Shown piece by piece: positions 31,915-39,655 of a DNA stretch of 53,651 bases. The DNA comes from Fimbriiglobus sp. (GTDB taxonomy: Bacteria; Planctomycetota; Planctomycetia; Gemmatales; Gemmataceae), in NCBI GenBank assembly GCA_043738505.1, contig JAYUFU010000045.1, forward strand, positions 1-53,651, given 5' to 3'. Position 1 is the first letter of the stretch; every line of letters starts with the position of its first letter. The notes beneath the pieces were generated by a model. That model made no database searches, was not told the DNA's origin, and worked only from the letters and a program-made list of their open reading frames with translations. Position numbers and translations under genes: made by a program.

Positions 31915-31963
31915 GGCGGTCACTTCTCCGAAGGTATTCCGCACTCTTTCGAGTAGGTCGCGG

Positions 31964-32842
31964 TCAATCCGCCACCCGCTTGGTAATGCCGCCGTAGAAG
32001 TCGATCCGCCGGTCGCGGAAGAACGGCCAGTTCCGCCGAATCTCCTCCATCCACTTGCGCGAACAGGTGATGGTGACGATCTCCTCTTTCGCGGTGTCCG
32101 CCACCTTCAAGAGGCGTCCGAACGGGTCGGACACGAACGACCGGCCCCAGAACTCCAGCCCGTCGCCCGTCAGCTTCTCGTGCCCGACGCGATTGACTGC
32201 ACCGACGTACACGCCATTCGCAATCGCATGACCGCGCATCGAGGTCTCCCACGCCGAGTGCTGGGCGTCGCCGTACTCGGCCTTCTCCTTCGGGTGCCAG
32301 CCGATGGCCGTCGGGTAGAAGATGACCTCCGCCCCTTGCAGCGCCGTCAGCCGCGCCGCCTCCGGATACCACTGGTCCCAGCAGACCAGCGTGCCGACCT
32401 TGGCGTACCTGGTGTCGAACACCTTCCAGCCGGTGTCGCCGGGGGTGAAGTAGTACTTCTCCAGGAACATCGGGTCGTCGGGGATGTGCATCTTGCGGTA
32501 GAGGCCGAGGAAGGTGCCGTCGGCGTCGTGGACGGTGGCGGTGTTGTGGTAGACGCCGGGCATCCGCTTCTCGAACAGCGAGCCGACGACGACGACGCCG
32601 TGCAACTTCGCGGCCCGGCCCAGCCGGTCGCTGCTCGGCCCCGGCACCGGTTCGGCCAAGTCGAACAGGTGGTAGTCTTCGGTCTGGCAGAAGTACGGGC
32701 CGGTGAACAGCTCCGGCAGGCAGACGATCTGCGCGCCGCGCTTGGCGGCCTCGCCGATGGCGGCTTCCGCTTTGGCCAGGTTCGTCTCGCGGTCGGCGTC
32801 GCACCCCATCTGCACGAGGGCGACGGTGAACGTGTCGGACAT
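31964..32842 (-). CDS. aguB: N-carbamoylputrescine amidase (carbon-nitrogen hydrolase)
   Basis: LPELF..YFCQ, YRKMHIPDDP.F.EKYYFTPGDTG, CWDQWYPEAAR, YPTAIGW and FFRDRR match AguB-type nitrilase-superfamily signatures. Confidence 0.85.
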   Translation of the reverse strand: MSDTFTVALVQMGCDADRETNLAKAEAAIGEAAKRGAQIVCLPELFTGPYFCQTEDYHLFDLAEPVPGPSSDRLGRAAKLHGVVVVGSLFEKRMPGVYHNTATVHDADGTFLGLYRKMHIPDDPMFLEKYYFTPGDTGWKVFDTRYAKVGTLVCWDQWYPEAARLTALQGAEVIFYPTAIGWHPKEKAEYGDAQHSAWETSMRGHAIANGVYVGAVNRVGHEKLTGDGLEFWGRSFVSDPFGRLLKVADTAKEEIVTITCSRKWMEEIRRNWPFFRDRRIDFYGGITKRVAD

Positions 32843-32866
32843 GGGAATGGCCTCCGTGTGCCGTGG

Positions 32867-33553
32867 TCATGCGTCTTGGGAATGAAGGCGGTTCTGGCGA
32901 CGAAGTTCCTTCGCAACGAACGGAGACTCCGTGACAAGGGAGCGGTAGGAGATGTCTCGTTGCCAGTATCGCTCCGCGTCGCGCTCGCGTGCCCGCCGGA
33001 AATCGTTGAGTCCCAAAGCGGTCACGGTGGTATCGATCTGCTGGCGGAGGGTCAGGTCGAGTGTGGGATTGGGGATGATCTGAAACGCGACCAATTCCAA
33101 GTGGAACCACCCGTCTTCGATTGCGAACGGGTCGAGGAACTTGGAGAAGTCCTTTTTCCGGGCATTCACCAGTCCGCACGCCAGCCGATAGTTGTCCCAC
33201 TCGTACACCCTGTCCCAGTGCTTGGACTTGGGCGCGAAATGATCCGCCGTTCGCCATCCCGTGACCTCGTGGATGCGAAAGCAGGTGAACGCACAGACTT
33301 GGTGGTACGCGGCCATCAGGTCGTCGAGCGATTCCCTCCAGTACGGCGGGAATTTGTCGCCGGGGATGTCTTCGCGCTTGGTGGCGATTTTGGCGAACCG
33401 GTTGCCGGCCGAGCGTCTCGGCCGCCGGCCGATCATTTCGGCAATGGCACGCACGCCGGGGACACGTACCATTTTGTGGAAATCGTCCGGCTCCTCGGCT
33501 GGCTCGACACGTATCACTTGCCACCCCGAAGTTTGTCGCGGTAATCCGACCAC
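32867..33553 (-). CDS. HNH-type nuclease of the TIGR02646 / Septu PtuB-like family
   Basis: CAFTCFRI...TADHFAPKSKHWDRVYEWDNYRLACGLVNARK matches the C.YCE...DHF.PKS....W.NL.LAC..CN..K pattern. FLDPFAIEDGWFHLE...TALGLNDFRRARER matches the family C-terminal lidP...LN...L..R block. The start is uncertain: GTG at 33553 or GTG at 33517. Confidence 0.6.
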   Translation of the reverse strand: MVGLPRQTSGWQVIRVEPAEEPDDFHKMVRVPGVRAIAEMIGRRPRRSAGNRFAKIATKREDIPGDKFPPYWRESLDDLMAAYHQVCAFTCFRIHEVTGWRTADHFAPKSKHWDRVYEWDNYRLACGLVNARKKDFSKFLDPFAIEDGWFHLELVAFQIIPNPTLDLTLRQQIDTTVTALGLNDFRRARERDAERYWQRDISYRSLVTESPFVAKELRRQNRLHSQDA

Positions 33554-33636
33554 CGGACCCAGAATCGATCCGTCTCACCAAGAGAGGCGCGGAGAAGGAG
33601 ATCGACTTCCTCAATCTCTTTCGCGGCCGGAGCAGG

Positions 33637-34809
33637 TTAGCGAAGCAACGCCATCGCCCGGAGAATCGCTTGTTCGGCCTCCAGCGACCGCGGTTCCTTC
33701 AGGTCGAACGCATCACTCGTTAACCAGTTTGAAATGTCACCGAGCCGGACGTAGTCGCGCTTTTTCAGTTCGACTTTGTGTCCCACGAGGTCGAGATCAA
33801 ACCAAGCGTCGAGCTTGGCATCGAAATTCGGTTCGGCGGACGCCAAAATCAACGGTGAGTGAGTCGCCGCGATCAATTGTGTTTTCGCAGACGGGTGCAG
33901 TCGCTTCATCAACTTCAGGACTGATGTGAGGATTGTCCTCTGCCACCGAGGGTGCAGGTGGCTTTCGATTTCGTCGATTAGAATCACTACTTGATTCGTG
34001 AAGTCAGCGCCGATCTGCTTTGCGGCAATTCGATGTTCTTGCCATGTCCACAGGATCATGTAAGCCAGCGCGACGATTCGGCGGACACCGGACGAGGCGT
34101 GGAGAATCGGCACGGCCGGCGCATAATCCGTGGCGAGTGAGGGAACGTCCTTTCCAGAGTTCAACGACATGCGTACGAGCGGGCCGGGATTGAGTTGGTC
34201 GTGAGGGTCGGACGACGGCGACAGCGCGGTAAGCACCGCCGCCATGTTTTTGGCGGGGATGCCATTCTCGCGGATCCAAATCGCCCAATCCATCAGCAAG
34301 CCGTTGCAGACCTTTTCGGGGCCGACATCCAGTCCGTCCCACACCTGTTTCTGGGAGAACACATACCCCGGCAGCCGATCTTGTTGAACGTCGATGTTCC
34401 CTTTCTTTTTCCAGTAATTCCGTGCGGGATCCCAGACCGAGAACCCGCCGTCGGCGTGAGCGTAGACGACCAGCCCTGGGTTCCACGGTCGTCCGGGTTT
34501 CCCACTCCACGCTTGATCCAGGAGTGCGTAAGTGCTTGTGTAACTGACTTCCTTCGCTTTCGTTTTGGAAGTCAATCGGAACTCGATGGTCGCCGGTTTC
34601 TTGACATCCGTGGGACGGGCGGGGTAACCGGAGGTGAGGTTCGGGTTGACTTCTTGCGGCCAGCGGCGGGTCAGTGCCCACCACGCGACATCGAGGAGGA
34701 AACTCTTGCCTAGCCCGTTGTCGCCCGTGATGAGGTTGAGACGATCCGCCAGCTCCATCGTCATCTCGGGAGCTGGACCGACGTTTTTGAGGTGAAGAAA
34801 CTTCAGCAT
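33637..34809 (-). CDS. AAA/ABC-like ATPase, Septu PtuA-like
   Basis: Walker [15 protein letters not shown], Walker B plus D-loop [14 protein letters not shown], and downstream [12 protein letters not shown]. It lies immediately upstream of the HNH gene on the same strand, in a visibly AT-richer segment. Confidence 0.65.
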
Positions 34810-34933
34810 GGCAAGGTCCGCGACTTCCGAAAGGTTGAGCGGAGTTCCCGTTGTTCAACGGCACTTCGTCGTTTATACCAACAGCGTTCGACGAAATCCA
34901 CTGCCCTCTCCTGGCCCTTCGGCGACCACTCCC

Positions 34934-36889
<1,956 letters not shown>

Positions 36890-36935
36890 GCGGGGCGGTG
36901 TAGAATCGAAGCGTCACGACCCGAAGGAGCCGAAC

Positions 36936-37328
36936 ATGGCCACGCTGACCGAACAACTCGACCTGATGCTGACCCTGAAGCCGAACTGGGACGGCTACAA
37001 CGCCGACCCGATCCAGCCGCGGCTGGTCGAACTGGCGCGGGATTTCGTCGAATTCTTCCAAGTGATGGAAAAGGTGACGGGACAGGATTTGCGGCTGTTC
37101 GTGCATCCGACCCGCGTGGGCGGGGTGCAGATCGAATGGCAAGATGCGACACAGGAACACGAGTTGGAGATCGATCCGGACGGCTCGCTCGGATTCCTCC
37201 ACATCGACCGCGCGACCGGAGCCATGACGGAGAAGAAGTTCTCCCCCCCCGCCGAGGGCTTGGCGTTCGCGTCGGGCTGGCTGCCCCTCCTCGCCCAGTG
37301 CGGCGGCGGCCCGCGGCTGGCAGCGTGA
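36936..37328 (+). CDS. hypothetical protein (130 aa)
   Basis: ATG at 36936 is preceded by GAAGGAG. The LKPNWDGYNADPI motif and the later GGVQIEW are seen by me in small phage/accessory proteins, but I cannot name the family. Confidence 0.6.
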   Translation: MATLTEQLDLMLTLKPNWDGYNADPIQPRLVELARDFVEFFQVMEKVTGQDLRLFVHPTRVGGVQIEWQDATQEHELEIDPDGSLGFLHIDRATGAMTEKKFSPPAEGLAFASGWLPLLAQCGGGPRLAA

Positions 37329-37418
37329 ACCCGGCAGGGTGGCGGGCCGGGCAACCCGGATGGGAGAATGCCGGCATGTCGCGGGTCCGTCCCGCGGCAT
37401 TCACTCCGGAGACTGGCC

Positions 37419-37790
37419 GTGACACCCACCGATCCCATCGCCGATGACGAGTTGATCCTCCGCCACATCCCCGGCGGCACCATGTGGCAGAAGGCCGACG
37501 GGAGCATCGCCAGCCCCAACTTCCGCCTCCGCCCCGGCGAGGACGGCATCTCCGTGAGCCGTCTGGCGGTCACCTCAACCGAAGCGTTCATGACGCGGCT
37601 CGGCGACCCGGCCACCGGTTCCCGGATCGCCGTTGCCCGAGTCGCCGACATCCGGGCGCTGGGCTTCGAGGTTGTGCCAGTCCCGCGAGACTACGACTTG
37701 GGGCACGCGGAACTCCGCCCCACGACAGCCGACGCGACGGCCAAGCAAACGCCGAAGGCACTGGCAATGGCGTTCCGGTATGTGGCCTGA
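37419..37790 (+). CDS. hypothetical protein (123 aa)
   Basis: GTG at 37419 has GGAGA 8 nt upstream, inside listed ORF 37368..37790. Coding bias is good. Family not recognised. Confidence 0.55.
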   Translation: MTPTDPIADDELILRHIPGGTMWQKADGSIASPNFRLRPGEDGISVSRLAVTSTEAFMTRLGDPATGSRIAVARVADIRALGFEVVPVPRDYDLGHAELRPTTADATAKQTPKALAMAFRYVA

Positions 37791-38752: not shown

Positions 38753-39655
38753 TCACCCGCGCGGGTGGAACTTCTTGTGCATGGCCTTCAAGCGGTCGCG
38801 GTCGATGTGCGTGTAGAGCTGGGTGGTGGCGATGCTGGCGTGGCCGAGGAGTTCCTGCACGGTGCGCAGGTCGGCCCCGCCGGCCAAAACGTGCGTGGCG
38901 AAACTGTGGCGCAGCGTGTGCGGCGACACCTTCGTCGGCAGCCCGGCCCGCTTGCAGTACTTCTTGACGATCTTCCACAACATGAGCCGACCGAGCGGCC
39001 GGCCGGACTTGCTGACGAACACGTCCGCCGGGTGCGGCGGCGGGGCGGTGAACGCCGGCCGCCCTTCGCCCAGGTACGTTCGCAGCGCGGCCACCGCCGG
39101 CCGGCCGAGCGGCACCACCCGCTGCTTGTTCCCCTTGCCGGTGCAGCGCAGGAACGCCGCGTCCAGGTACACGTCCTCCACCTTCAGGCCGACCACTTCG
39201 GACGCCCGGCAGCCGGTGGCGTACAGCGTTTCCAGAATCGCCTTGTCGCGCAGGTGGAAGCGGTCGCCGGGTCGCGGCCCGGCCAGCAGTTGATCGACCT
39301 GCACGGCGTTCAGCACGGTCGGGATGCGCTGCCACAGCTTCGGCGAGGCGAGCAGTTCCACCGCCGACCGGCTCACTTTCTCTTCGAGTTTGAGGAACTT
39401 GTAGAACATCCGCAGCGCGACGATGTGCCGGGCGACCGACGGCGCGGCCAGGTTGGCGTCCAGCAGGTAGCCCAGGTAGCGGGCCAGTTCCTTCAGCGTC
39501 GGCGTCAGGTGATCCGCCAGCCGGATCGTCTCCGTCCACTCGGCGAACCGCTTCAAGTCCCGCCCGTAGGCCATGACGGTGTTCTCGGACAACCCCCGCT
39601 CGGCGCGGAGGTAGTTGCGGAACGCCAGGATGTCCGAGTGCAGTTCAGCCGACAT
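38753..39655 (-). CDS. site-specific tyrosine recombinase XerC/XerD
   Basis: N-terminal SAM-like domain FRNYLRAERGLSENTVMAYGRDL. Catalytic residues are ATGCRASE, HTLRHSFATH and LLGHASIATTQLYTH. Confidence 0.9.
   Translation of the reverse strand: MSAELHSDILAFRNYLRAERGLSENTVMAYGRDLKRFAEWTETIRLADHLTPTLKELARYLGYLLDANLAAPSVARHIVALRMFYKFLKLEEKVSRSAVELLASPKLWQRIPTVLNAVQVDQLLAGPRPGDRFHLRDKAILETLYATGCRASEVVGLKVEDVYLDAAFLRCTGKGNKQRVVPLGRPAVAALRTYLGEGRPAFTAPPPHPADVFVSKSGRPLGRLMLWKIVKKYCKRAGLPTKVSPHTLRHSFATHVLAGGADLRTVQELLGHASIATTQLYTHIDRDRLKAMHKKFHPRG

Follow-up and report, generated by a model that had tools for sequence, protein, structure and literature searches.

The locus described here raises the question of whether a short ATPase gene and the small nuclease-like gene that follows it constitute a divergent sub-type of the Septu anti-phage system or a damaged copy of an ordinary one. 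Both genes, ptuA and ptuB, lie between an aguB-like gene and acs (positions 32867-34809) in a 53,651-nucleotide (nt) stretch of DNA from Fimbriiglobus sp. (assembly GCA_043738505.1, contig JAYUFU010000045.1; the whole stretch is called the window below). A first-pass annotation of the letters alone had drawn two minus-strand open reading frames (ORFs) here, and both are present as drawn (33637-34809, 390 amino acids (aa), and 32867-33553, 228 aa); it had also proposed that the shortness of the ATPase and the scarcity of cysteines in the HNH protein might mark an uncharacterised sub-type. Comparison with homologs gives a different answer: in the reading that we hold to be likely, this is a horizontally acquired type I Septu cassette in which ptuA has been broken by a nonsense codon and which is most likely inactive.

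The ATPase ORF terminates at an in-frame TAA (33639-33637). The lengths of homologous proteins were compared in two sets, the 120 closest PtuA homologs and, separately, 51 complete metagenomic ptuA-ptuB pairs. In the first set they range from 418 to 459 aa, except for a single protein of 556 aa, and in the intact metagenomic copies from 424 to 446 aa, against 390 aa in the window. Translation continued in frame past the TAA yields 40 further codons (PAPAAKEIEEVDLLLRASLGETDRFWVRWSDYRDKLRGGK) followed by a TGA (33516-33514). This orphaned tail carries the family residue at all seven of the alignment columns that are conserved at 85% or more, and its mean identity to the homologs (0.48) is not below that of the homologs to each other over the same region (0.42); thus the tail is without sign of decay. 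At the position of the TAA the homologs have a sense codon, which in the closest relative (L001; GCA_038247725.1) is CAG (Gln). The short ATPase is thus not the mark of a sub-type, being instead the product of a nonsense codon inside an otherwise typical 431-codon family member, and it is because of this codon that the match to the PADLOC PtuA profile ends at position 379 of 424.

The junction between the two genes is explained in the same way. The TGA of the ptuA frame overlaps a GTG (33517-33515) that opens the sequence VIRVEPAEEP, and PtuB homologs share an N-terminus of the form M/V-IRV and a length of 216-220 aa. A stop/start overlap of 4 nt is found in 46 of the 51 complete ptuA-ptuB pairs, and L001 uses ATGA. 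Public calls of the ptuB start conflict, with 201 aa in NCBI/ENA and 216 aa in Logan, and the maximal ORF has 228 aa. The homolog N-termini, together with the GTGA junction, point to GTG 33517 as the start of a 216-aa PtuB, with the 228-aa ORF over-extended and the 201-aa call too short. The ancestral layout is accordingly a ptuA of 431 codons joined through GTGA, a translational-coupling junction, to a ptuB of 216 codons. Given this frame and overlap, the gap annotated between the genes as 84 nt (83 nt by the ORFs as listed) is not intergenic, being leftover ptuA 3' coding sequence.

What the premature stop removes can be seen on an AlphaFold2 model of P0121, a full-length homolog that is 83% identical (predicted local distance difference test score, pLDDT, 87), which was used for all comparisons of the PtuA fold. 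The C-terminus of this model consists of helices at residues 376-390, 397-401/404-410 and 416-431; the window TAA sits directly after the first of these on the P0121 model, and two of three helical elements are lost. In the solved PtuAB complexes, according to three reports (PMC12819146, PMC12673091, PMC13376987), paired three-helix PtuA C-terminal domains sandwich the three-helix PtuB C-terminal domain, and a PtuA of the Ec78 system lacking residues 524-550 (delta524-550) loses both immunity and toxicity. By analogy with these complexes, the helices lost here would be those that dock PtuB in this subfamily, the truncated PtuA would be unable to hold PtuB properly, and defence would be abolished.

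In an intact system of this kind, ATP-bound PtuA oligomers would grip PtuB by means of the three-helix C-terminal domain, and infection would release or activate the PtuB nuclease, leading to DNA nicking, cleavage of tRNA-Tyr and cell arrest. In the window, the TAA at codon 391 of 431 takes away two of the putative docking domain's three helical elements, and it stops ribosomes 120 nt short of the GTGA junction through which ptuB translation is normally coupled to that of ptuA, a coupling that ptuB has presumably lost; no in-frame codon at which translation of the orphaned tail could restart is present. Over the 51 complete pairs, PtuB divergence is correlated with that of the PtuA tail (Mantel r=0.80) and with that of the ATPase body (r=0.72), and the correlation with the tail persists when the body is taken into account (partial Mantel r=0.70, p=0.001). 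The rest of the locus is intact, from which it follows that the lesion is probably recent, and the locus most likely represents a Septu system that was inactivated not long ago.

Several observations weigh against inactivation. The inference of lost function leans on homologs that are only 13-17% identical, and the first C-terminal helix (residues 376-390), which is retained, might permit weak binding of PtuB. The covariation of tail and PtuB is confounded by the fact that the tail adjoins ptuB on the DNA, so that linkage contributes to the signal. A Shine-Dalgarno-like sequence (GGGGTGG) lies just 5' of ptuB, which may be translated independently. Finally, both frames are otherwise undamaged and the allele occurs in several samples, which also fits a tolerated or useful truncation.

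The foremost alternative explanation is that of a functional, divergent Septu sub-type with an intrinsically short ATPase, or of a truncated PtuA that still defends, through the retained helix or through PtuB alone. The intactness of all ATPase motifs and of all invariant PtuB residues favors it, as do the recurrence of the allele and the Shine-Dalgarno-like sequence that ptuB has of its own; but a protein of comparable shortness occurs in none of the 120 closest homologs and in none of the 51 complete metagenomic copies, the missing residues remain encoded in frame past the TAA, and deletion of the C-terminus of Ec78 PtuA kills immunity and toxicity alike. We regard a functional short form as unlikely. 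Less likely than the cassette exchange considered below is that the shared nonsense allele represents a tolerated 'uncoupled' state, kept since transcription through the cassette would now drive aguB.

The chance is smaller again that low-level read-through of the TAA makes full-length PtuA in amounts sufficient for defence of a reduced or tunable kind. The tail is undamaged and the TAA is followed by C, and in E. coli UAA-C is a comparatively weak tetranucleotide context for termination; however, bacteria normally read through UAA at well under 1%, a recoding signal was not found, and homologs carry a sense codon at this position. PtuA in the solved complexes is moreover an oligomer, two of whose tails are required per PtuB.

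A nonsense codon in a contig that is apparently derived from a metagenome could also be a sequencing or assembly artefact, as one erroneous base suffices to produce a TAA, and ptuA would then be intact. We give this very little credence. The identical TAA is found in at least four independent datasets (ENA ERZ27314313 and the Logan assemblies SRR23617226, SRR22198289 and SRR23617241), and the exact 390-aa product was recovered from the same ENA assembly and from the three SRA re-assemblies. The TAA is genuine because it is seen in the ENA assembly and in three SRA runs, one of which departs from the window sequence at six further positions. In that one (SRR23617241, L085) the six clustered substitutions fall in acs (contig positions 80-116, corresponding to window positions 35140-35176) and none in ptuA; the contig is otherwise identical, and since they lie near its end the substitutions could be either strain variation or assembly-end noise. 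As the strain variants came from an exact-protein look-up, they are biased for judging selection on the truncated ptuA. In-frame stops or truncations also occur in the metagenomic ptuA copies L095, L120 and L165 (also L157), or some 4-5 of 80 loci, and thus decay of this cassette is not rare.

That the pair belongs to Septu, as first proposed, is borne out by both profiles and folds. The truncated ATPase matches the PADLOC PtuA profile PDLC00307 with E=1.7e-158 over profile positions 1-379 of 424, and the Pfam families AAA_21 (2.3e-20), AAA_15 (6.8e-15) and AAA_23 are also matched, so that the search suggested for this protein in the first-pass annotation returns significant ATPase and PtuA hits. 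The motifs quoted there (Walker A GDNGLGKS, Walker B and THSPLI) are all present; the encoded protein keeps Walker A, the signature SSGVRR, Walker B and the H-loop, and these are invariant across an alignment of 54 sequences. It thus has both the PtuA-specific profile match and the ATPase motifs expected of a Septu PtuA, and lacks a complete PtuB-docking C-terminal helical domain, profile positions 380-424 being unmatched. NCBIfam gave only sub-threshold retron PtuA and PtuB matches for the pair. Against the PDB, the P0121 model fits E. coli Septu PtuA best (8eea_D, E=1.6e-15), with chains of retron PtuA ranking next, and a search of the PDB with the PtuA sequence gave an alignment limited to the Walker B/H-loop segment.

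The gene order, ptuA followed directly by a co-directional ptuB with neither reverse transcriptase (RT) nor non-coding RNA (ncRNA), is that of Septu. No RT ORF was found among the window ORFs near the pair, and retron and other RNAs, sought with Rfam over 30-38 kb, gave only sub-threshold chance matches; the pair is thus a stand-alone Septu and not part of a type I-A retron. It is a type I pair, PtuA ATPase plus PtuB, as PADLOC defines it. Its subfamily is compact and poor in cysteines, is found widely across Planctomycetota and Myxococcota, and is occasionally carried on plasmids. No experimentally tested member of the sub-profiles PDLC00307 (PtuA1) and PDLC00348 (PtuB1) was found. Assignment to another ATPase-nuclease family (PARIS AriAB, Gabija, OLD, AbiEii or a type I-A retron effector module), for which the 'AbiEii' annotation carried by AAA_21, AriA profile matches of 3e-27 and a match of 1.4e-14 to retron PtuA (NF041760) could be cited, is scarcely credible against a PtuA match some 130 orders of magnitude better, a partner that is PtuB and has no Toprim or AriB match (PARIS in particular being rejected on these two points), the absence of RT ORF and retron RNA, and the lack of the retron PtuA N-terminal extension (431 aa here vs 550 aa).

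The assignment of PtuB rests on its match to PADLOC PDLC00348 (E=1.2e-61, profile positions 2-195 of 198) and on its architecture, a nuclease domain followed by a helical C-terminal domain. In the AlphaFold2 model (overall pLDDT 77) the C-terminal helices at residues 155-207 are well defined (pLDDT 85-96) and correspond to the helical PtuB domain that is sandwiched in the solved complexes, and the catalytic core is of low confidence (pLDDT <50 at residues 72-92 and 115-122). The ten best PDB fold matches of this model are all PtuB chains, and are weak (E ~1e-2, template modelling score ~0.45); a PDB search with the single PtuB sequence gave no significant match, and one with a PtuB profile found 8EE7 PtuB as the best (E=0.14).

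The HNH relationship is a remote one. No HNH or other match was found in a Pfam scan of the window PtuB, and among 60 PtuB relatives HNH_4 matches 11 and HNH matches seven, all weakly. Membership in TIGR02646, which had been proposed for the small protein, does not hold, as it scores 15.3 bits (E=0.015) against a cut-off of 52.15 bits and is a remote relative only; for the retron type I-A PtuB family NF041761 it scores 18 bits against a cut-off of 150. All 60 aligned homologs likewise match both TIGR02646 and NF041761 (best E ~1e-8; 1.2e-8 for TIGR02646) and all fall under the cut-offs. Residues C75, C79, H83, D92-H93, N109, N118 and K121 are invariant across the 60, of which D92-H93, N109 and N118 are candidate catalytic residues; the 'LAC' cysteine C114 is variable. 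The four-cysteine zinc finger of retron type I-A PtuB is thus absent, only C75 and C79 (plus H83) being invariant. The resulting C-x3-C-x3-H arrangement is conserved over 60 homologs and is thus a trait of the family rather than decay in this genome. The solved PtuB of E. coli Septu (8EE7), aligned as LCCYSEIR...IEHVENKS...N--LAAS, is also without CxxC...CxxC. Scarcity of cysteines, occurring in the 60 homologs and in a solved Septu PtuB alike, therefore does not distinguish a divergent sub-type.

The cassette differs from its surroundings in composition, as had been estimated by eye. The G+C content (GC) of 32867-34809 is 0.586, compared to 0.683+-0.024 for all non-overlapping same-size segments of the 53.6-kb window (z=-4.1), and is the lowest of any such stretch; GC at third codon positions (GC3) is 0.69 in ptuA and 0.77 in ptuB and 0.93 in both flanking genes. 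Synteny of acs and aguB was compared across reference genomes by an AguB-based search. In the Fimbriiglobus and Gemmata metagenome-assembled genomes L003 and L004 the two genes are divergently adjacent, 126-133 bp apart, and these empty sites argue that the pair is an insertion. In the closest relative L001 (AguB 94% and Acs 90% identical to the window) the order at the same site is acs, ptuA (432 aa, intact), ptuB (216 aa, ATGA overlap) and aguB, and the GC3 of its cassette is likewise low (0.71 and 0.66). The horizontal acquisition proposed at first, for which empty sites and anomalous GC and GC3 speak together, and the insertion between aguB and acs are thus upheld, except that this genome is not alone in having the insertion: the intact copy in L001 places it before the split of the two lineages. 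The pair is best read as an insertion into the divergent acs-aguB intergenic region in an ancestor shared with L001, and has not ameliorated since.

The insert consists of essentially two genes, with 124 nt left towards acs and 24 nt towards aguB; alignment to the empty sites gave no exact insertion boundaries, those intergenic regions being too diverged. The 24-nt spacer is too short to hold a terminator or promoter, and aguB is therefore probably co-transcribed with the ptuA-ptuB cassette, and a promoter/terminator scan found nothing on the coding strand. Only short chance repeats were found in a search for flanking direct or inverted repeats, and no tRNA gene was found near the pair. A tyrosine recombinase gene lies 4 kb away (38753-39655, minus strand); it scores 341.5 bits, above the XerD equivalog cut-off of 329.6, and thus most likely encodes the housekeeping XerD, as opposed to an integrase tied to the insertion, in agreement with the first-pass statement that integrase and flanking direct repeats are lacking. 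Homologs at 35-53% identity are found on plasmids, conjugative or mobilizable, of Azotobacter, Azospirillum and cyanobacteria; a search of phage records for homologs found none. The acs-aguB site was also considered as a general insertion hotspot, for which no support was found, as Limnoglobus L002 has merely a different synteny with PQQ-propeller genes upstream.

Comparison with L001 points to a second kind of change. Between the window and L001, PtuA is 85% identical over residues 1-370 and 45% identical over residues 371-431, and PtuB is 45% identical, whereas PtuA of the window and of homolog P0124 are 76% identical in the body and 72% in the tail. L001 PtuB shares 41-52% identity with each of the 60 proteins in the window PtuB clade. 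This pattern (regions compared: window 32867-33700, comprising ptuA codons ~370-431 and ptuB, and L001 7100-7946) suggests that the PtuA docking domain was exchanged together with PtuB, the breakpoint lying around ptuA codon 370-380. In the 51 complete pairs, too, the divergence of PtuB is tied more closely to that of the tail than to that of the body. That Septu loci diversify in this manner, by swapping docking domain and PtuB together, is put forward only tentatively. If true recombination is involved, nuclease and adaptor would form an effector cassette that is swapped on and off a conserved sensor/ATPase chassis. The apparent co-exchange of tail and PtuB lends modest independent support to the docking interface seen by cryo-electron microscopy in very distant homologs.

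Table 1. Features of the ptuA-ptuB locus and its flanking genes (window coordinates).
Feature	Position	Strand	Remarks
Ancestral ptuA frame (reconstructed)	33514..34809	-	431 codons + TGA, broken at codon 391
ptuA ORF as encoded, truncated	33637..34809	-	390 aa, ABC/AAA_15-AAA_21 ATPase
Premature TAA, codon 391 of ptuA	33637..33639	-	CAG (Gln) in relative L001
Orphaned 40 in-frame ptuA codons	33517..33636	-	Last two helical elements of C-terminal domain, with conserved DRFWVRWS motif
GTGA junction	33514..33517	-	Ancestral ptuA stop TGA overlapping ptuB start GTG
ptuB	32867..33517	-	216 aa from the supported start; remote HNH-type nuclease domain + helical C-terminal domain (~155-207)
Maximal ORF around ptuB	32867-33553	-	228 aa
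Spacer, ptuB stop to aguB start	32843..32866	-	24 nt, with GGAGG Shine-Dalgarno-like sequence
Divergent intergenic region, ptuA start to probable acs start	34810..34933	.	124 nt
CN-hydrolase, aguB-like N-carbamoylputrescine amidase	31964..32842	-	GC3 0.93, native
Acetate-CoA ligase, acs	34934..36889	+	GC3 0.93, native

The names first given to the flanking genes (Table 1) stand to different degrees. The acetate-CoA ligase score of acs exceeds its NCBIfam cut-off, while for the aguB-like gene N-carbamoylputrescine amidase is the top NCBIfam match only, at 311 bits under an equivalog cut-off of 410 bits. Called mechanically, the acs ORF opens at 34808 and thereby overlaps with the start codon of ptuA; alignments with homologs set in at ATG 34934 (MSTTSPN...), so that the true start is probably there, leaving the divergent intergenic region listed in Table 1. 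Two small plus-strand ORFs between acs and a GNAT acetyltransferase gene (36879-37328 and 37368-37790) have no Pfam match and are absent at the corresponding position of L001; the first is matched weakly and in part by PDC-M32A, a candidate family of PADLOC (E=2.6e-6). Conversely, a small DUF433 gene between aguB and a glyoxalase-family gene in L001 (8866-9087) is missing in the window (31944-31964), and is a second small gene-content difference between the two neighborhoods.

The cassette is thus a known kind of system, Septu type I, of which the copy in this uncultured Gemmataceae bacterium is a new and probably defunct one. Profile-based defence finders would call the locus an intact Septu type I, even though its ATPase is without the nuclease-docking helices, and scoring such loci as functional inflates the inventories of defence systems for uncultured Planctomycetota. 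The locus also offers a clean natural case of a defence system at an early stage of decay, in which one nonsense codon shared by several samples is the sole damage, and the case gains from the intact orthologous locus in the sister genome L001.

Among known systems, E. coli stand-alone Septu (PDB 8EE4/8EE7/8EEA) supplies the best structural matches for both proteins. Both systems have ptuA followed by ptuB without RT, an ABC-type ATPase with a C-terminal helical domain, and a PtuB with a nuclease and a helical C-terminal domain, and PtuB of E. coli is also without CxxC...CxxC knuckles. They differ in that sequence identity is only 13-17%, the ancestral PtuA has 431 aa here vs 465 aa in E. coli, the window family has the motif C-x3-C-x3-H, and the docking domain in the window is incomplete (cut at codon 391). 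The E. coli structures are reportedly those of Li et al. 2024 (NSMB 31:413). This structural work is described by later papers that cite it (PMC13096335, PMC12819146). PtuAB of Retron-Eco7/Ec78 (type I-A) is a homologous ATPase-nuclease pair, in which the three-helix C-terminus of PtuA binds PtuB's C-terminal domain; the window pair lacks its RT, ncRNA and PtuA N-terminal extension. Retron-Eco7 PtuB is described as having an essential C4 zinc finger (C43/C46/C78/C90; PMC12673091), whereas in the window family the equivalent region holds just two conserved Cys and one conserved His. With TIGR02646, a putative HNH endonuclease family of retron systems, the window PtuB shares the motif order C...C, DH, N, N..K while being a remote non-member. 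The cassette's own family is PADLOC septu type I, PDLC00307 (PtuA1) plus PDLC00348 (PtuB1), which both proteins match strongly and near full length, the match of the window PtuA halting where its reading frame is cut, at profile position 379 of 424.

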